64,000 nt of DNA from NCBI GenBank assembly GCA_035354195.1, contig DAOQAT010000001.1:79674-143673 (forward strand). Reading direction: 5' to 3'. The notes under the pieces were generated by a model. It saw only the letters and a program-made list of their open reading frames with translations, did not search any database and was not told the origin of the DNA. Positions 2 through 40,362 of this stretch are shown one piece after another. This stretch comes from Bacteroidales bacterium. Its GTDB lineage: Bacteria; Bacteroidota; Bacteroidia; Bacteroidales; CAIWKO01. The position numbers and the translations under genes were made by a program. Position 1 is the stretch's first letter. Each line of letters begins with the position of its first letter.

Positions 2-94
2 ATCATTGATATCTCGGACCTTGCAACAGGATTGTATTTTATTAAGGTGAAAACTGAAAAAGGCGTTGTGGTAAAGAAGATGATAAAGGAATAA
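2..94 (+). CDS. 3' end of a T9SS type A sorting-domain protein (partial, starts before window)
   Basis: Frame 2 reads IIDISDLATGLYFIKVKTEKGVVVKKMIKE-stop, the typical GxYxxK...KKxIxE end of a T9SS CTD. Confidence 0.85.
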   Translation: MIDISDLATGLYFIKVKTEKGVVVKKMIKE

Positions 95-30834: not shown

Positions 30835-31596
30835 ATGATAAAACCTACATTGAAAAATATTTTGGTACCTCTAAAAGCCTTGGTATCGCTGTTGATTTTC
30901 ATCATCACCACGCAATTTTTTACACTGCTGATCCTGGTGCCTTTTTCAAATAAAAAAAGATCGGCCGCAACTTTTTATACGAAACTCCTTACTTTTTACG
31001 CCCGTTTTATCATCAAAACCCACTTCAACATTAAAGTGAAACACCTGAACAAGCCCGAACAACTTTTTCAACATCCTGCTTTGGTGGTATGCAATCATCA
31101 GTCGATCATTGATGTCCCGGTTTCATTATCCCTGACTCCCAAAATGCGGGTGCTCAACAACAACTGGCACGACAATGCAGGTGCAAAGTTTTTTATTACC
31201 AAGTATATCGGTTTTTTCTCCATTTATCAGGACCTTGACATTCTCGTAAAGAAACTGGAACCTTCTGTAAAAATGGGATGCCCCCTGCTGGTTTTCCCGG
31301 AAGGTATCATGAATTACGGCCAGCAAATTAAACGTTTTCACAAAGGTGGTTTTTATATTGCGCGAAACCTCGACCTTGACGTACAGCCTGTAGTTATTTA
31401 TTATTCAGAAAATGTTTTAAGAAGACGCTGGTTTTATATGAAAAACGGTGATGTTGTGGTGAAATTTCTAGATCCAATAAAAGTAAACAGCCCTTTGTAT
31501 GGTGAGACTTACCAGGAACTTACTCATAATGTGATGTGCGAAATGCGTAACGAATATGCTGCCATAAAAGCAGCTTACGAGTCGGGCAGCTTATAA
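30835..31596 (+). CDS. lysophospholipid (PlsC-like) acyltransferase
   Basis: NHQSIID and FPEG motifs. Confidence 0.88.
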   Translation: MIKPTLKNILVPLKALVSLLIFIITTQFFTLLILVPFSNKKRSAATFYTKLLTFYARFIIKTHFNIKVKHLNKPEQLFQHPALVVCNHQSIIDVPVSLSLTPKMRVLNNNWHDNAGAKFFITKYIGFFSIYQDLDILVKKLEPSVKMGCPLLVFPEGIMNYGQQIKRFHKGGFYIARNLDLDVQPVVIYYSENVLRRRWFYMKNGDVVVKFLDPIKVNSPLYGETYQELTHNVMCEMRNEYAAIKAAYESGSL

Positions 31597-31682: not shown

Positions 31683-31915
31683 TAGTCTGTTACATCGGAT
31701 CGCTAGGGTGGATGAGCGTTGGCCTGCCCAGACAGCGGGCCAGCACTGGCGTGAATCAGAAAATATTTGAAAATCTTCAAAGGCGCCAACGGCGTCTCCC
31801 GTATCCGCCAATCCGGCGGATCGGGACAACTTTGAATAGATTTTCAATATTTTTGAGAGCCTGCCTGAACGACTGTTCAGTCGGGCAGGCGGGTTGAAGC
31901 ATTGTCTGGGCTGTC
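31683..31915 (+). repeat. structured ~250-bp repeat, copy A, 5' part (continues 33480-33530)
   Basis: Colinear with 56367-56586; interrupted by a micro-palindrome and IS110. Confidence 0.85.
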
Positions 31916-32136
31916 TCCGCCGTATTCTAAGGTCTAAAAAAGAGAAATCTGCTAAAGTTATTAACAATTTAGGCGGCAAATTTAAATGTTTCAACATAAG
32001 GTGTCCCTCTTTTTACAACAGCAAAGATTCGTGCTATAAGTTTGTTTCTAATAATGTTTATTGTACTCATTCCATTTGCTCCTTTTGCTTTTCTATTTTG
32101 ATAATAAATTTTCATTTCCGGGTTATAAAGAATAGC
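31916..32136 (-). repeat. exact 221-bp duplicate of the IS110 right end plus transposase 3' end
   Basis: Identical to 32160-32380. Confidence 0.92.
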
Positions 32137-32212
32137 CCGTTTTGAATTTTGAAAATTTTTCCGCCGTATTCTAAGGTCTAAAAAAGAGAAATCTGCTAAA
32201 GTTATTAACAAT

Positions 32213-33208
32213 TTAGGCGGCAAATTTAAATGTTTCAACATAAGGTGTCCCTCTTTTTACAACAGCAAAGATTCGTGCTATAAGTTTGTTTCTAATAATG
32301 TTTATTGTACTCATTCCATTTGCTCCTTTTGCTTTTCTATTTTGATAATAAATTTTCATTTCCGGGTTATAAAGAATAGCTGAAATAGCGCATAAATTAA
32401 GCAAGGCTTTTATTTTTTTATTCGCCAAATGGCTTACTTTATTACGACCCTTTACACTGGTTCCTGAGGTATACGGAAACGGAGCTGTTCCGGCATAACT
32501 TGCAAACTTCCTCCATGTATCAAAATTGGTAAAACAGTTGGTATAAGCTATCATTACCAATGCTGTCTGTTTACCTACACCTTTTATACTGATAATTAAG
32601 TAATATTGCTTTTTAATAAGCTCATCGCTTTTAATAATACTATCAAGTTCTTTTTCGATTTTTATTATCAGCTTATTTTGGTCCTTTATTGATTTTTCAA
32701 TTACTTCAAGCAATACTTTATTATCTTTTGGTTTTAAAAACAAAAGATTCTCTTTGCTGTCTTTTAAGAAACTGCCTCTTTGCCTGACAAGACGGTCTCT
32801 TAAAGCAAGCAGCCGGCGCATCTTTAAAATATTTTCAAAAGGTAATCGCGATGGAATGATTTTGTCTCTTTTTTGATACGCATATTCGGCTATTCTTTTT
32901 GCATCAATTTTATCATTCTTTCCCCTTTGAATACCAAGAGATCTCTTAATCTCAAGACCAGGCAGCAGGACGAAATTATAACCTTTTTCCGACAGAAAAA
33001 CAGAAATCGGTAATGAATAGATTCCCGTATGTTCCATAGCAATAAGTATTTCTTCTTTATTGCAAGAAACATTTTTTAGCAACCAAGAGATAAGCTTCTT
33101 AAAACCATTGGTGTTGTTTTCAAGTAACGATGATTTTTGCGTTGAAAGGACCCTAACATCAAATTTCAATTTTGAAATGTCAATGCCAACAAATTCTTTA
33201 AATTTCAT
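32213..33208 (-). CDS. IS110 family transposase (bridge recombinase)
   Basis: VGIDISK, MEHTG, KNDKIDA (DEDD); SIKGVG; SG serine motif in YTSGTSV. Confidence 0.95.
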   Translation of the reverse strand: MKFKEFVGIDISKLKFDVRVLSTQKSSLLENNTNGFKKLISWLLKNVSCNKEEILIAMEHTGIYSLPISVFLSEKGYNFVLLPGLEIKRSLGIQRGKNDKIDAKRIAEYAYQKRDKIIPSRLPFENILKMRRLLALRDRLVRQRGSFLKDSKENLLFLKPKDNKVLLEVIEKSIKDQNKLIIKIEKELDSIIKSDELIKKQYYLIISIKGVGKQTALVMIAYTNCFTNFDTWRKFASYAGTAPFPYTSGTSVKGRNKVSHLANKKIKALLNLCAISAILYNPEMKIYYQNRKAKGANGMSTINIIRNKLIARIFAVVKRGTPYVETFKFAA

Positions 33209-33234
33209 ATCTTTGTTTTTAAATTAATAAATAA

Positions 33235-33455
33235 AGTTGCAAGACAAAAACCTTTAATAGACCGCACGTCTAAAATTCTAAATTGTTCTGCGCAACTATG
33301 TAAAAGAATGGGGACTAATACGGCGGAAAGGTCTTACCTGTCGGCGGACAAAGTTCACCCCATTCTTTTTTTTCAACAAATAAACACATATTAACAAAAG
33401 AAAAAGAAGCAAAAAGAAAATAATACTAATAATAATTATTATTCTTATAATTCCC
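33235..33455 (-). ncRNA. predicted IS110 bridge RNA (target loop 33302-33369, donor loop 33235-33297)
   Basis: Two stem-closed internal loops whose guide segments match the flanks and the element ends; -7 box TAGATTTG at 33461-33468; 5' end estimated. Confidence 0.8.
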
Positions 33456-33479
33456 TTTTGCAAATCTAAAGGCGGCGGA

Positions 33480-33530
33480 TTCTTTGGTTCGTTTCTTTTG
33501 GACAGGCAAAAGAAATGAACGCTTATATCA
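33480..33530 (+). repeat. structured repeat copy A, 3' part
   Basis: TTCTTTGGTTCGTTTCTTTTGGACAGGCAAAAGAAATGAAC matches 56570-56610. Confidence 0.85.
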
Positions 33531-33618
33531 AAAAAATATTCCAATAAAAGTTAGATGTTTTAATCTACTTTTTTAAAGTATTGGAAATTGGGTTAAATTT
33601 GCAGGAAAAATAACAGCG

Positions 33619-35289
33619 TTGGTAGTTTTGTATTTATTGTCCGGCCTCGCCCTGCTTATTATTCTGTTTATTGCTTTCTATGCAATTGTGGTGATCAAGG
33701 TACCGCCAAATGTACCGGGACTTGATTTGTCGGATTATTCGATAAAAAAAAACGGTGATATATCCCGTATTGGAAAAAACTGGCTGACAAAAAACAAATG
33801 GGGCTTATACGAAATGTATATCGAAGGGCCTCCCTTTGAACGCGGAGTGGCCAACGGCAGGCTGGCCGAGAAACTGATTTACACGCAGGAAAAGATTTTT
33901 GTTGCCGAAATAAAAAAGATCATTACCAATAATTTTTACCTTGGCTTTCTTAAATATATTGTCGCCTGGATCAACAGGAAACTGAAATTTCATATTGGCG
34001 AGGAATACAACATGGAAATTTACGGGGTGTCGCTGTCCGCATCTAAAGATTTCAGGCTGATCGGCCCGAATTATATGCGAATGCTGAATTATCATGCTGC
34101 GCACGATATCGGACACATGTTGCAGGATATGAACCTGGTCGGTTGCAGCTCTTTTGCAGCTCTGGGAAACAGGACTGCTGACGGTAAAATAATACATGCC
34201 CGGAACTTTGATTTTTATGTCGGAGACGAGTTTTGTAAAGAGAAAATAGTGACTTTTTATGCTCCCGAAAAGGGATATAAATTCGTGATGATCACCTGGG
34301 GCGCCTTGATCGGAACGGTTTCCGGAATGAATATGAACGGGCTGGCCATAACCGTCAATGCCGCCAAATCAAAACTTCCTGTAAAAACCACCACACCGGT
34401 TACCATACTCATCAGGGAAATGCTCCAGTATGCAGCTACCATTGATGAAGTAATTGATATTGCCCGCAAACGTAAAATCTCCGTTTCCGAATCTTTTATG
34501 GTCAGCTCAGGGCCGGAGCAACGTGTGGTGATTATTGAAAAAACGCCATACCGCACAGAAATTTTTGATCCCGGAACAGATCAGATTATCTGTACCAACC
34601 ATTTTCAATCCGAAGCATTAAAAGATGATGCGTTAAACCTGCAACAAATAGCTGAAAGCGCTTCGATGTACCGCTATCAAAGGCTGGAGGAACTTCTTGA
34701 AAGATTTCCTAAAATCACCGTTCAGTCCGCTGTTGAAATATTACGCGACCGGCTGGGCATGCACGATGAACCGATCGGGGACGGGAACGAAAAAACGTTG
34801 AACCAGTTGCTGGCACATCATTCAATAGTTTTTAACCCGAACGACCTGAAAATGTGGATTTCTGCAGGGCCTTTTGGCCTGGGAGCATTTATCTGTTATG
34901 ATCTCCGTACGGTGTTTGAAAAAGATGGCGCTGTCGACGAAAATACGGTCATCATTAATGAACACGAAACAATTGCCGCGGATGACTTTCTGAATAACGG
35001 AGGCTTTAAACGATTTGAAAAGTTCAAGGAAATAAAAGATACGCTGGCAAATGTAGCATCAGATGGCGCTGTTCCCTTGTCCATGATTGATGATTTGGTA
35101 GCGCTGAATCCTTCGTATTTTCTGACCTACAGCATAGGCGGAGATTTTCTTAAGAGAAAACATCATTATGAGAAAGCTGTTGAATTATATCAGACAGCGC
35201 TGCAAAAAGAAATACCAACCCTGAAGGAACGGGAGGTGATCAGGAAAAACCTGGATCATTGCATGAAAAAACTGGCACAACACAATTAA
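33619..35289 (+). CDS. peptidase C45 family autoproteolytic acyltransferase/hydrolase
   Basis: G-CSSFA nucleophile site, ARNFDF, SGMN..GL, CTNHFQS; TTG start; TAAATTTG box at 33594-33601. Confidence 0.85.
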   Translation: MVVLYLLSGLALLIILFIAFYAIVVIKVPPNVPGLDLSDYSIKKNGDISRIGKNWLTKNKWGLYEMYIEGPPFERGVANGRLAEKLIYTQEKIFVAEIKKIITNNFYLGFLKYIVAWINRKLKFHIGEEYNMEIYGVSLSASKDFRLIGPNYMRMLNYHAAHDIGHMLQDMNLVGCSSFAALGNRTADGKIIHARNFDFYVGDEFCKEKIVTFYAPEKGYKFVMITWGALIGTVSGMNMNGLAITVNAAKSKLPVKTTTPVTILIREMLQYAATIDEVIDIARKRKISVSESFMVSSGPEQRVVIIEKTPYRTEIFDPGTDQIICTNHFQSEALKDDALNLQQIAESASMYRYQRLEELLERFPKITVQSAVEILRDRLGMHDEPIGDGNEKTLNQLLAHHSIVFNPNDLKMWISAGPFGLGAFICYDLRTVFEKDGAVDENTVIINEHETIAADDFLNNGGFKRFEKFKEIKDTLANVASDGAVPLSMIDDLVALNPSYFLTYSIGGDFLKRKHHYEKAVELYQTALQKEIPTLKEREVIRKNLDHCMKKLAQHN

Positions 35290-36506
35290 TGGCTGATAAA
35301 AGTAACATAAGAAAGCAGTTTGACGACCTGAAGTGTTGTGTGATCATTCCCACATACAACAATGCACAGACATTACGGGCCGTGATCGCTGGAGTGTTGG
35401 AATATACCAGCCATGTTGTGGTGGTTAACGACGGTTCCACCGATGCGACCAAAGAAATCATCGAAAGCTTTGAGGGCTTGCTTTCCATACATTTTCCGAA
35501 AAACAAAGGGAAAGGTTACGCCTTGCGCAAAGCCATAAAGTTTGCCTTTGAACAAGGCTATAATTACGGCATCACCATCGATTCCGACGGGCAACACCTG
35601 CCATCGGACCTTCCATTATTTATCGAAAAGATCAAAGAAAATCCAGAAGCGATCATCATTGGGTCCAGAAATATGGAGCAGGAAGGCGTTCCGGGGAAAA
35701 GTAGTTTTGGCAACAGGTTTTCCAATTTCTGGTTTTATATCGAAACCGGCAATAAACTTCCCGACACCCAGTCAGGGTATCGTTCATACCCCTTGTTTTT
35801 ATTACATAAGCGGAGGTTTTTCGGACGAAAATATGAATTTGAAGTAGAGGTGCTGGTCCGTTCTTCGTGGAAACGAATTGAAATTATTCCTTTGCCTGTG
35901 AGCGTTTATTATGCCCCGAAACCTGAAAGAATAAGCCATTTCAGGCCGTTCACCGATTTTTTCAGGATCAGCCTGCTGAATTTTGTGCTTTTTTTCTATG
36001 CAATTTTAATCGTCAACCCTTTCAGGTTTGTAAAAGCATTGAATAAAAAAAACATAAAGGAATTTTTTCAGAAAGAGTTTATTCAAAGTGGAGACAAGGA
36101 TTCAAAGATCATTTTTTCGGTGATGCTGGGCGTTTTTATTGGTGTGGCGCCGGTCTGGGGATGGCAGATGGCTTTGGCGCTGATACTGGCCATGCTGTTA
36201 AAACTGAACCGGATGATCACTATAGTCGCCTGCAATGTGAGCATCCCGCCGATGATCCCGCTGATTATCTACCTTAGTTATTTGTTCGGAGGTATCGTGT
36301 ACCATCATGATGTGGTTTATATGCAATATTCCCATGATATCACCCTCGAAAAAATAAAGCTAAACGTGATCCAATACCTGATCGGCAGTTTGTTTTTTGG
36401 AGCCGTACTTTCATTAATTTCGGGGCTGGGCACATGGATTTTGTTGAAAATTTTCAGAAAAAAACGGGTCGTCACAGAAGAGGTCAAAATAAATACAGAG
36501 AAGTAA
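35289..36506 (+). CDS. GT2 glycosyltransferase fused to DUF2062 membrane domain
   Basis: IIPTYNN, VNDGSTD, DSDGQH, DTQSGYR; hydrophobic C-terminus; ATG overlaps upstream stop (TAATG). Confidence 0.88.
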   Translation: MADKSNIRKQFDDLKCCVIIPTYNNAQTLRAVIAGVLEYTSHVVVVNDGSTDATKEIIESFEGLLSIHFPKNKGKGYALRKAIKFAFEQGYNYGITIDSDGQHLPSDLPLFIEKIKENPEAIIIGSRNMEQEGVPGKSSFGNRFSNFWFYIETGNKLPDTQSGYRSYPLFLLHKRRFFGRKYEFEVEVLVRSSWKRIEIIPLPVSVYYAPKPERISHFRPFTDFFRISLLNFVLFFYAILIVNPFRFVKALNKKNIKEFFQKEFIQSGDKDSKIIFSVMLGVFIGVAPVWGWQMALALILAMLLKLNRMITIVACNVSIPPMIPLIIYLSYLFGGIVYHHDVVYMQYSHDITLEKIKLNVIQYLIGSLFFGAVLSLISGLGTWILLKIFRKKRVVTEEVKINTEK

Positions 36507-36510
36507 ACGG

Positions 36511-39500
36511 ATGAGTTTTTTGTTTTTAAAAATATACGATTTTTTCAGCAGGAGGAAGTACCTGCTTTTTACCATATTGTTTTTACTGGTGGCGGTGTGC
36601 TGGTTTTTGTCCGTGCGGGTAAAGTTCAGTGAAGACATCACCGATTTTTTGCCGAAAACCAAAGATGTTGAAAATATCAATGATGTATTTAAGCTTATAA
36701 AATCCAATGATAAGCTTGTCATTATTATTAGCAGCCAGGGTTCGGGCAGTGAAAATACCGGACGGCTGATCTCATACGCCGATATGCTGTCGGAAGATAT
36801 CCGCAAACAGCTGATGCCTGCACTGATTAAGGATATGACATACCGGATCAGTGAAGAGCAAATGTCGGGAACGTATGACGTGTTGTGGAAAAACCTACCA
36901 TTGTTTCTGGATGAAGACGATTATCAGCGCTTGAGCACGATGATCGATGAAAAAAAGATCGATTCCGTGCTGAACAGTAATTACAAAATGCTGGTTTCGC
37001 CTGCCGGTATCTTCATGCGGAAATACATCGTCCGCGATCCATTAAACATCAGCAGTTATGCGTTGCGGAAAATGAGCATGTCGAGCGTTGGCAACGGTTA
37101 TCAGGTTAGTGATGGATATATCTTTTCGAAAGACAAAAAAAACCTGCTGATGTTTTTAAGCTCGGCCAATCCGACGAGCGAAAGCTTTAATAATACCAAA
37201 CTTGTTGATAAACTGGATGACATAATTGATAATAATCTGAAGAATATCAATGACAAGTCAGTCAATATCCAGTATTATGGGGCCGCCGCAGCTTCCGTTT
37301 GTAACGCCCGGCAGATGAAGACCGATTTTGCGGTAACCATGGGGATCGCCGTATTGATATTGCTGGTCTTTTTTGGGTTGTTTTTCAAAAACAAAACCAC
37401 CATCATCATGCTGATGCTTCCTGTGGTTTTCGGCGGGTTATTTTCTTTTGCCATCATTTCACTGATTCATCCGGATATTTCGCTTATAGCCATTGGCGCG
37501 GGTTCTGTGATTCTGGGCATCGCCATTAATTATTCCATACATTTTTATGCCCATTACCGCCATGTGTCGTCCATACGGCAGGTGATCAAAGACCTGGCAG
37601 CCCCGCTGACTATCGGCAGTACCACAACCATCGGCGCTTTTTTAGGGCTGCTGCTGGTGAAGTCGGATGTGCTCAGGGATTTCGGCCTGTTCTCGGCTTT
37701 ATGCCTTGTCGGCGCTGTCTTGTTTACCCTTATTTTTCTTCCCTTTTTTATAAAGGCCAGGCAAGAACAGGCGGCAGAACCGGACAAGCCCAATTTAATA
37801 GACAGGTTTTCATCGTATCATTTCGAAAGAAATCCATACATTATTGCCGGGGTGATTGTTCTGACCATTTTCTTTTTTGTGATGGCCCGGAAAATCAGTT
37901 TTGAAAATGATATGAACAAGCTGGGGTATACTTCGGAAAAATTAAAACAAGCCGAACAAACCCTTACTAATATTTCTGACAGTTCGCTGCGCCAGGTGTT
38001 TGTCGTTTCCAAAGGTAATGACCTGAATGAGGCTTTGAAAAATAATGAACAGATAAGCCGTAAAATCATCAAGCTGCAACAGGAGAAGGTCATTGACCAG
38101 GTCTCTGGCGTGTCGCCGGTGTTGTTGTCCGATTCGGTGCAACGGCAGAAAATTGAAAAGTGGGAATCGTTCTGGACAAAGGGGCGCAAAGAAAATATCA
38201 AAAAATGGATGTTGTCAGGCGGCCGGAAACTAAAGTTCCGCGATGATTCCTTCAACGAATTTTTTGCAGCGCTTGACCGTAAGTATTCACAGATGAGCAG
38301 CACGGATTTTGACCAACTGAAAAGTCAATATGCAGGGCAATTTGTGCATCAGGGAGAGAAAAATAATTTTGTGATCACCATCTTAAAAATAAATCCAAAG
38401 CAGCGTGATGCGGTGATAGCAGCCATTCCGGAAGATAAACATACGGTGGTTGTTGAAACACAAAACCTGCTGTCGCATTTTATCGATATCATCAATAATG
38501 ACTTTAACACCATCCTGCTGATCTCGTCGCTGCTGGTATTTTGCTTTTTATTGTTTTCATACGGCCGTATCGAACTGGCGCTTATTGCTTTTGTCCCGAT
38601 GCTAATCAGCTGGGTGTGGATACTCGGCATTATGAGCCTGTTTGACATAAAGTTCAATATTTTCAGCATCATCATCTCAGCCTTTATTTTCGGCTTAGGG
38701 GACGACTACAGCATTTTCATCATGGATGGTTTGCTGCAGGAATATAAGTCGGGTGTGAAGCTGCTCAACTCATACAAGACAGCGGTGTTTTTATCGGCTT
38801 TCACCGTGTTTGTGGGTGTGGGCGTACTGATCTTTGCAAAACACCCGGCTTTGCGGTCTATTGCCACACTCACCATCATTGGCATGCTTTCCGTGGTATT
38901 CCTGTCGTACACCATTGCACCGGCCTTGTTCAAAATGCTGGTTTACAAAAAAAACAAACTACGTAAATTTCCCGTGACATTTTTTGGATTGCTGTACGCG
39001 TTGTATGGCTATACCTATTTTGTAGGAGGTTGTATCATCACCGGTGTTTTAGGATTAACGCTCATCAAAATATTGCCCGTTGGAAAGAAAAAACAGCGTT
39101 ATATTTTTCATTACCTGATGATGCTCGTATGCCGCAGCACCATGTTTGTCATGTTTTTTACCAAAAAACGCTTTATCAACCTTTCGGCCGAAACATTTAA
39201 AAAACCGGCTGTGATTATTTGCAACCACCAGTCTATTATTGATATTCCGCTGCTGATGATGTTCTATCCAAAAATCATCATGATCACCAACGACAAATGG
39301 TTTAGGTCGAAAATTCGTGGAATTATCATCAGGATGTCCGGCTACCTGCCGTCTTCACTGGGTTATGATGTGATAAGTGAAAAGTATGCCGAATACGTCG
39401 CCAGCGGGTATTCCATCGTGATATTCCCCGAAGGATCGCGCTCTGAAGACCATGAAATACACCGTTTTCATAAAGGTGCGTTTTATCTGGCCGAAAAAAT

Positions 39501-40362
39501 GAAACTGGATATTTTGCCTGTCGTGATGAATGGAACCGGAAATTATGTGGCAAAAGGCGAGTTGATGGGTCGGAGAAGCCTGATCACGCTTAAATTTTTA
39601 GACCGGATAACTCCTGAAAATACTTCCTTTGGAACAACGTACCTGGAGCGTTCCAAGGGCCTTACAAACCTTTACAGAAAAGAGTTTGATGAGATGCTTG
39701 ACGGATACAGGAAACCTGTTTTTTATAAAGACACCCTGATCAAAAATTTTATTTATAAAGGACCTATCCTGGAATGGTACACACGTATCAAACTCAAGCT
39801 TGAAAATAATTATGAGTTGTATAACAACCTGATCCCGATGAAGGCGAAAATCCTGGATATCGGATGCGGCTATGGTTACATGTCTTTGATCCTCGGCATG
39901 ATCTCAAAAAACAGGATCATCAAAGGAATCGATTACGATCAGGAGAAAATCGAAGTCGCCGCGCACTGTATGTCAAAACCTGAAAATGTTAGTTTTGGCT
40001 TCGAAGACATTTTGAACTACGGGATAGAAAACCAGGATGTATTTTTATTGAGTGATGTACTTCATTACGTTAACCCGGAACAGCAGCATGCGATACTTTC
40101 AAAGTGCGCCTCGCAATTGAATGATGGCGGGATGATACTGGTTCGCGACGGCAACAAGGACCTAAGCGGCAGGCATGGATTGACAAAACTTACCGAACTC
40201 TTCTCCACCAATTTCGGGTTTAATAAAACAGGCGGAGACAAGCTGCATTTTTTATCCTCGAAACTTCTTGAAGAAATTGCTGCAAATTATAACCTGCAAA
40301 TGAGCGTAATTGATGACAACAGGATGTCGTCGAATGTGTTGTTTGTATTGAAAAAGCAATAA
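36511..40362 (+). CDS. MMPL/RND transporter - lysophospholipid acyltransferase - class I SAM methyltransferase fusion
   Basis: Two TM bundles (GIAINYSIH, GLGDDYSIF), NHQSIID/FPEGSRS, ILDIGCGYG. Confidence 0.88.
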   Translation: MSFLFLKIYDFFSRRKYLLFTILFLLVAVCWFLSVRVKFSEDITDFLPKTKDVENINDVFKLIKSNDKLVIIISSQGSGSENTGRLISYADMLSEDIRKQLMPALIKDMTYRISEEQMSGTYDVLWKNLPLFLDEDDYQRLSTMIDEKKIDSVLNSNYKMLVSPAGIFMRKYIVRDPLNISSYALRKMSMSSVGNGYQVSDGYIFSKDKKNLLMFLSSANPTSESFNNTKLVDKLDDIIDNNLKNINDKSVNIQYYGAAAASVCNARQMKTDFAVTMGIAVLILLVFFGLFFKNKTTIIMLMLPVVFGGLFSFAIISLIHPDISLIAIGAGSVILGIAINYSIHFYAHYRHVSSIRQVIKDLAAPLTIGSTTTIGAFLGLLLVKSDVLRDFGLFSALCLVGAVLFTLIFLPFFIKARQEQAAEPDKPNLIDRFSSYHFERNPYIIAGVIVLTIFFFVMARKISFENDMNKLGYTSEKLKQAEQTLTNISDSSLRQVFVVSKGNDLNEALKNNEQISRKIIKLQQEKVIDQVSGVSPVLLSDSVQRQKIEKWESFWTKGRKENIKKWMLSGGRKLKFRDDSFNEFFAALDRKYSQMSSTDFDQLKSQYAGQFVHQGEKNNFVITILKINPKQRDAVIAAIPEDKHTVVVETQNLLSHFIDIINNDFNTILLISSLLVFCFLLFSYGRIELALIAFVPMLISWVWILGIMSLFDIKFNIFSIIISAFIFGLGDDYSIFIMDGLLQEYKSGVKLLNSYKTAVFLSAFTVFVGVGVLIFAKHPALRSIATLTIIGMLSVVFLSYTIAPALFKMLVYKKNKLRKFPVTFFGLLYALYGYTYFVGGCIITGVLGLTLIKILPVGKKKQRYIFHYLMMLVCRSTMFVMFFTKKRFINLSAETFKKPAVIICNHQSIIDIPLLMMFYPKIIMITNDKWFRSKIRGIIIRMSGYLPSSLGYDVISEKYAEYVASGYSIVIFPEGSRSEDHEIHRFHKGAFYLAEKMKLDILPVVMNGTGNYVAKGELMGRRSLITLKFLDRITPENTSFGTTYLERSKGLTNLYRKEFDEMLDGYRKPVFYKDTLIKNFIYKGPILEWYTRIKLKLENNYELYNNLIPMKAKILDIGCGYGYMSLILGMISKNRIIKGIDYDQEKIEVAAHCMSKPENVSFGFEDILNYGIENQDVFLLSDVLHYVNPEQQHAILSKCASQLNDGGMILVRDGNKDLSGRHGLTKLTELFSTNFGFNKTGGDKLHFLSSKLLEEIAANYNLQMSVIDDNRMSSNVLFVLKKQ

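Follow-up and report, generated by a model that had tools for sequence, protein, structure and literature searches.

The window analysed here, a 64,000-nucleotide stretch of contig DAOQAT010000001.1 from a Bacteroidales bacterium, carries an intact element of 1306 bp which is a recently mobile member of the IS110 group. Its intact open reading frame (32213–33208, minus strand) encodes a recombinase of 331 amino acids with domains PF01548 and PF02371, which scores 170.6 bits against NF033542 (cut-off 140) and in which residues D10, E59, D99, D102 and S248 align with the catalytic residues D11, E60, D102, D105 and S241 of IS621. With both domains present, the NF033542 score above its cut-off and the DEDD and serine residues in place, the protein belongs to the IS110 family. 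The left end of 263 nt (33209–33471, minus strand), which shares its end motif with relatives, carries donor positions 10–15 (CTTTAG) at 33471–33466, and the right end of 46 nt (32167–32212, minus strand), defined from the sequence and from relatives, carries donor positions 1–8 at 32174–32167. A C common to target and donor, which occupies position 9 in a register taken from the relatives, lies at 32166 (minus strand). The long left end containing a predicted RNA, and the short right end, place the element in the IS110 rather than the IS1111 group, and no inverted repeat pairing both termini occurred among the best 25 of 111 inverted repeats, those being the longest. The insertion lies in the spacer that separates an acyltransferase gene (30835–31596) from a same-strand run (33619–40362) headed by an AAT-family acyltransferase gene; judged by eye, the next two open reading frames resemble a glycosyltransferase and a large membrane transporter fusion.

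The element lies in the centre of its target, the 14-bp palindrome TCCGCCGCGGCGGA. On the transposase strand, target positions 1–9 read ATCCGCCGC and positions 10–15 read GGCGGA; the left half (positions 9–1) is located at 33472–33480 and the right half (positions 15–10) at 32160–32165, both on the minus strand, as defined by comparison with empty sites. Two such sites, C18:28161 and C82:3720, show the same flanks in the same host repeat with the 14-mer uninterrupted, and they thereby settle the 14-bp form of the palindromic target that the original prediction had deduced, while its alternative, a 12-bp target with a CG core, was not borne out. The genome contains 38 exact copies of the palindrome in unrelated contexts, compared with 0.011 expected under a fifth-order Markov model. 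The surrounding host sequence is a REP-like repeat with many genome copies, recognised by sequence matching, one part of which extends over 31700–31915 and another over 33480–33537.

Several features of the palindrome and its host repeat were observed in passing. The repeat has at least two slots with exchangeable palindromic inserts which differ between copies, for example of the CCTGCC...GGCAGG type. The 14-mer itself resembles a micro-insertion, in that a paralogous repeat copy lacking it was found for 15 of the 38 sites, and in 11 of those 15 copies exactly three letters take its place; example sites are C7:56814, C18:28161, C29:6164, C56:10052, C75:4858 and C88:5401. It is present in 11 of 17 genomes of the same genus (3–44 copies), in one of five other family members and in none of 18 others. 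Eight of the 38 sites fall within long open frames, which make up 89% of the genome, and the genome yielded 10 matches to Y1 transposases.

Beside the element lies a duplication that the original prediction had missed. Positions 31916–32136 are a 100% copy of 32160–32380, so that the flank adjoining 32160 is not the host site, and the host repeat resumes at 31915. The duplicate (minus strand) comprises the terminal 214 bp of the IS together with half of the palindrome, joined to the true host flank, and the 23 bp at 32137–32159, which complete a 244-bp unit (31916–32159), match the flank of a second, near-cognate site (C17:4483, with core AC; the match covers C17:4489–4519). Along the transposase strand, the full IS gives way to 29 bp of the C17 site; the terminal 214 bp of the IS then appear again, and the true flank in the host comes last. 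The C17 site carries one mismatch and the same AC core as the donor, and it was used in the sole orientation that keeps a C at position 9. Doubled depth of the duplicated segment was observed in public sequencing runs X1 and X2, which may be source samples; for X1 the depth at the right end was 32.7 as compared with 12–16, and a 60-nt piece with a depth of 14 spanned the odd joint with 30 letters a side, one under the bridging threshold. A plain assembly error is not favoured in view of the doubled depth and the 60-nt piece in X1, and the duplicate is likely to be real in the source population. The 23 bp are likely to be a relic of a copy once present at the C17 site, and it may be guessed that stepwise top-strand transfer of the kind described elsewhere (10.1101/2025.10.25.684509) could yield such a duplicate.

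Further copies of the IS were sought in seven (X1–X7) of 24 public sequencing runs. Run X4 carries the IS with no differences and with both flanks matching site C7:56814 exactly, and in run X5 the flank at the right end is identical to site C72:9534; genome G000 has both sites unoccupied. In run X3 the IS reaches a depth of 41, as against about 8–13 on neighbouring DNA, which suggests about four copies, with pieces that end at the palindrome edges and with at least two different flanks at each IS end. Run X7 contains an IS variant with another flank, and run X6 yielded internal parts only, with no junction. Among the junctions listed (seven right-end and five left-end, window included) all retain the 7-bp half palindrome and the flanks shown differ just beyond it. 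Copies at unrelated sequences would have counted against the proposed targeting; those recovered from the public runs lie instead at further copies of the same palindrome. No further copy with the same protein was found in the 17 genomes of the same genus, and a search for the junction pattern in 400 genomes of the phylum produced two matches, both in genome G484 and both lacking the transposase.

The left end is predicted to encode a bridge RNA with two loops (33235–33369, minus strand), as judged from its fold and from an alignment of relatives. Folding of 33225–33385 gave a form with two long stems, each with an open loop capped by a short hairpin, with a z-score of -3.05, and one of 200 shuffled sequences was as stable. 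The stems, guides and end matches described in the original prediction were all recovered: for the target loop, a 12-bp stem (33302–33313/33358–33369) enclosing TCCGCCG twice on the transposase strand (33342–33348 and 33321–33327) and, for the donor loop, a stem at 33235–33240/33292–33297, with TTAGAAT matching the right end at 32168–32174 and TAAAGG matching 33467–33472. The proposed IS621-type layout, with the target loop followed by the donor loop, is supported by the fold and by the consensus structure, in which 13 of 19 pairs show two-sided changes. The donor outer stem was not recovered by RNAalifold on the alignment; in a per-sequence check it averaged 6.8 bp with its own partner as compared with 5.5 bp when partners were swapped (0 of 1,000). 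No Rfam family matched the element, and the one match outside it was at chance level.

All the predicted guides lie on the minus strand. The left target guide is the 9-nt GUCCGCCGA (33341–33349), placed by the register of the aligned relatives' RNAs, and it matches the target at positions 2–8, with a G.T wobble at position 1 and a mismatch at position 9. The right target guide UCCGCCG (33321–33327), recognised from the guides of relatives, faces target positions 15–9; positions 14–10 are programmable while its first U and last G are constant in the clade. It is preceded by an extended handshake sequence UAUU (33317–33320), identified from inverted repeat I21 and from relatives, which can form Watson-Crick pairs with donor positions 8–5 and only wobble pairs, at positions 8 and 5, with the target. 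In the donor loop, the left guide (33273–33281) matches donor positions 1–7 and not 8–9, and the right guide (33250–33257) pairs with donor positions 14–8, with a wobble at 15; both were assigned from the sequence and the aligned RNAs. The two target guides had been described as identical, and seven of seven letters are indeed equal, a property confined to the window's element among 37 aligned RNAs, where the next best shows five of seven. However, the U and the G recur in 32 and 39, respectively, of 39 relatives as part of the scaffold, so that only five letters are programmable and the programmed identity amounts to the 5-mer CCGCC. The twin guides are a modest consequence of aiming at a palindrome. 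Palindromic targets recur in the clade, and a relative with 51% identity on a separate, well-supported branch (L133:619–784) occupies the middle of another perfect palindrome, of 16 bp, in an identical register, with guides that agree at five of seven letters.

Guides and flanks were then compared across relatives. From 200 relative loci, 68 were dropped because they scored low, 14 because the DNA upstream was short and 29 because they lacked scaffold anchors, leaving 89, for which the ends were called from donor motifs only. Left guides matched their own left flanks at a mean of 5.7 of 7 letters (53 distinct guides; shuffled mean 2.92, maximum 3.6) and right guides their own right flanks at 4.39 of 5 (49 guides; shuffled mean 2.23, maximum 2.78); neither value was reached in 10,000 shuffles, the best of three offsets being allowed for observed and shuffled pairs alike, although such shuffles overstate significance because the relatives are not independent. 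A retest in a fixed register on the 37 aligned RNAs agreed, giving 5.27 of 8 versus 2.64 on the left (30 guides) and 3.75 of 5 versus 1.48 on the right (24 guides), with five mis-called right ends kept in. The covariation on which the bridge RNA proposal had been made to depend is therefore present, with the left guide reading the bottom strand and the right guide the top strand, as in IS621-type systems. The sister locus L114, with a protein 83% identical, carries different guides which match its own different flanks.

Relatives with a 9-nt left guide indicate that the IS621 numbering applies, and for IS621 the top strands are cut after position 9 (PMC11208158), which fits both junctions of the present element. 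A first register, with guides of 7 + 7 letters and a crossover between positions 7 and 8, agreed neither with left guides of 9 nt nor with the position of the IS621 cut, and was dropped. In the IS621 numbering donor positions 1–9 read TTAGAATAC, followed by CTTTAG at 10–15, and target and donor have GC and AC, respectively, as their cores, with the C alone in common; the expectation of a core other than CT was thus correct.

We consider it probable that an IS621-type bridge RNA pairs with the palindrome and with the element's own joined ends, and that exchange takes place beside the single shared C. This scheme builds on the ends, the empty target, the copies at several palindrome sites and the guides that change with the flanks across relatives. 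By analogy with IS621, the right and left ends would join and complete a promoter, from which the left end would give rise to the bridge RNA; its target loop would read positions 1–8 on one strand and 9–15 on the other, and the top strands would be cut after position 9. Position 8, which is G in the target and A in the donor and lies outside the shared core, would serve as a third handshake base, since the target-loop U facing it forms a Watson-Crick pair with the donor base, and does so only after exchange. Insertion would be possible in either orientation, though guide position 1, where a purine is preferred, might introduce a bias.

The promoter would be formed at the junction of the joined ends. 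A -7 box, TAGATTTG, lies inside the left end (33461–33468, minus strand) and fits the Bacteroidetes -7 consensus (PMC7366714). The box is conserved, and in 32 of 50 relatives TTG occurs at a fixed spacing of 20 nt upstream across the rebuilt end junction, the -33 TTG being TTT in this element. A natural junction of right end and left end, in a tandem or a circle, is present in the same register in relative L125, and this was the one case of joined ends encountered; neither a circle junction nor a transcript of the window's element was seen.

A possible though rather unlikely explanation, which is compatible with the bridge RNA mechanism, adds target shape to guide pairing: the palindrome would extrude as a hairpin that aids the recombinase, as has been reported for ISPpu10, and the matching guides would be a by-product of aiming at hairpins which are cut where the 3' arm starts. 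A perfect stem of at least 6 bp occurs near the cut for 10 of 44 distinct guide sets, in seven of which the 3' arm starts exactly at the cut, as compared with a mean of 0.57 and a maximum of 4 for swapped flanks, in a post hoc comparison for which the pattern was noticed before the test and L083 was added by hand. In G276, seven copies (L083, L102, L109 and L190–L193) of a 52%-identical relative are all inserted at one base of one hairpin repeat, which has a 4-nt loop and for which the two guides share a 5-letter word. A stem-loop has also been reported to promote integration of ISPpu10 (10.64898/2026.03.19.712850). On the other hand, 34 of the 44 guide sets lack a perfect stem of at least 6 bp near the cut, a target repeated as a hairpin will yield the hairpin pattern by sequence alone, and the hairpin loop at the palindrome of this element would be only 2 nt.

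Under the guide-pairing mechanism the symmetry of the target bears directly on orientation. Positions 2–15 are identical on the two strands, so that the element would meet the same site in either orientation except at position 1, and two-way insertion is deduced here from that symmetry. An earlier supposition that the palindrome axis must cross the core for two-way insertion was abandoned, as any window self-complementary throughout would do. None of the sites compared was found filled in both orientations. Guide position 1 lies outside the palindrome, and its G accepts G or, by wobble, A. We regard it as unlikely, although worth weighing, that insertion is in practice directional or biased, with the orientation chosen by guide position 1 or by protein contacts beyond positions 2–15. 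It would account for the purine at position 1 in five of five left-end flanks among the junctions listed (the window, X4, X3 twice, of which one may be the window's site, and X5), for the use of the purine orientation at an asymmetric host site and for the match of guide position 1 to the flank in 36 of 53 relatives, and IS110 members have been described in one orientation only (PMC11187229). Nevertheless, a purine is found at 57 of 76 oriented sites, such that five of five would arise by chance about one time in four. Purines flank both sides at 25 of the 38 palindrome sites, one side at seven and neither at six, and position 16 varies among the flanks seen.

The unequal core bases invite a simpler reading which we hold to be quite improbable, namely that the clade uses an ordinary two-base core and that the difference at position 8 is tolerated drift and not a tuned feature. 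It is consistent with the matched TC core of two clade members in the data of Durrant, with the equality of target and donor at position 8 in 13 of 53 relatives and with the ability of a guide U to wobble with a target G. However, position 8 differs in the other 40 of 53, and the guide base follows the changed donor base (U with A, A with T) in 36 of 39. A two-base core common to target and donor and covered by all four guides, as in IS621-type systems, was not found for the element. Position 9 is C in all 59 left junctions, found with an end motif that contains that C with mismatches allowed, and in 39 of 54 right ends, where C was not forced and where some of the other 15 are probably false first matches.

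Position 9 is faced by a G in every one of 39 distinct right target guides, and the bases facing positions 8, 7 and 6 form Watson-Crick pairs with the donor in 36, 39 and 38 cases, respectively, as against 12, 7 and 5 with the target. Position 8 therefore behaves like the handshake positions, of which 7 and 6 pair with the partner DNA after exchange in 39 of 39 and 38 of 39 guides, in the IS621 manner; for IS621, the handshake positions have been reported to favour insertion through pairing after exchange (PMC13626964). Donor position 8 shows little variety and the relatives are not independent, which limits the weight of its count. For the element itself, the sequence allows two Watson-Crick pairs at positions 6–8 before exchange and three after, plus one at position 5. 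The donor loop behaves differently from the IS621 type: covariation of its handshake with the target did not exceed chance (10 of 27 versus 7.1; 1,184 of 10,000 shuffles), the fixed register gave 0.33 versus 0.26, and neither of the two letters matches in this element. In 21 of 27 relatives the right donor guide is already paired with donor position 8 before exchange, which works against it. As regards the shared C, the left target guide has a mismatched A in the present element; 18 of 27 relatives carry a C there. The left donor guide matches position 9 in two of 27.

That the guide matches are due to chance, the target being read by protein alone, can be set aside as exceedingly improbable: the guides involve only 5–8 letters each and lack an Rfam family match, but covariation over about 50 distinct guides already contradicts it, and the scaffold is conserved with compensatory changes.

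More tentatively, we propose as a serious possibility that the clade as a whole requires a single shared base, the C, with position 8 acting as a third handshake base that drives insertion, and that its members have time and again been redirected to micro-palindromes of the host, which are cut at the start of the 3' arm. The element in the window would then be the limit case: its palindrome is perfect, its guides are twins, and it would truly insert both ways into a mobile micro-insertion of 14 bp that replaces 3 bp of host repeats.

The IS621-type architecture and the targeting of REPs are already known. The closest systems are IS621 and ISCro4/IS622 (PMC11208160, PMC11208158, PMC13626964, 10.1101/2025.05.14.653916; PDB 8wt6, 9t56), with which the element shares a DEDD and serine recombinase aligning over its full length (E = 6e-27 and 5e-27), a long left end, the order of target loop then donor loop, 9-nt left guides, a REP-like target and a target-loop AU handshake that faces donor A6-T7. 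Of the IS621-type features, it lacks a two-base core common to target and donor as well as the handshake of the donor loop. Unlike those systems, it has no shared CT, its target GC and donor AC having the second base alone in common; position 8 acts as a handshake base and the left guides do not include position 9; the entire read window (2–15) is a perfect palindrome; and the -7 box is of the Bacteroidota type.

ISPpu10 and ISPpu9 of Pseudomonas putida (10.64898/2026.03.19.712850; 10.1101/2025.01.17.633520) are likewise IS110 members that insert into REP palindromes at one fixed base. They differ in that the core of ISPpu10 is CT and its stem-loop lies 5' of the cut, and in that ISPpu9 has a terminal AG, and in the available portions of these reports neither target is described as a perfect palindrome across the cut. 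For CazIS110-1, copy-out and direct-transfer pathways have been presented (10.1101/2025.10.25.684509); if only the top strand were transferred, the two junctions would each retain their own base at position 8, as is found here, and the second-site relic might be explained as well. Identical junctions could also arise through repair of a Holliday-junction product.

The original prediction of a new Bacteroidota bridge system holds as regards the clade, which is centred on the Bacteroidota according to the titles of matching records, but overstated its newness, since two clade donors were already included in the supplement of Durrant 2024 (PMC11208160). Among the 5,485 sequences of Supplementary Data 2, seq4586 and seq4631 carry the ends of the clade, with the same donor end motifs, the same register and a core ending in C; they differ from the element in having matching target and donor cores (TC at positions 8–9). 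Their cores at the same two positions confirm the register, and show that the clade had already been mined. The targets of seq4586 and seq4631 differ from the palindrome of the element, which had no match in the searchable supplementary files, and no discussion or test of the two sequences was found in the accessible text of that paper. In the literature searched, chiefly freely accessible papers and the main texts of preprints, no description turned up of a core that is naturally mismatched, of twin guides or of insertion both ways at a perfect palindrome.

Bridge editing is limited by the need for matching cores, with CT preferred (PMC11208160), a constraint also named in PMC13396178. A clade that shares only a C, with about 50 readable natural reprogrammings, could supply orthologs with a looser, orthogonal core, and would allow one to test directly to what extent a core can be dispensed with in favour of handshake pairing. 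With the palindromic target, in turn, one can readily test whether bridge insertion is directional only through target asymmetry. The class of mechanism is already known. The one-base core across the clade is a more useful result than the twin guides.

Among the relatives, two minor irregularities were also seen. L112 and L121 show donor-like sequence after the right end, as insertion at a half-match would give, and for L111 a duplication of 4 nt may be present in the rebuilt target, which would suit two junctions made in separate steps.
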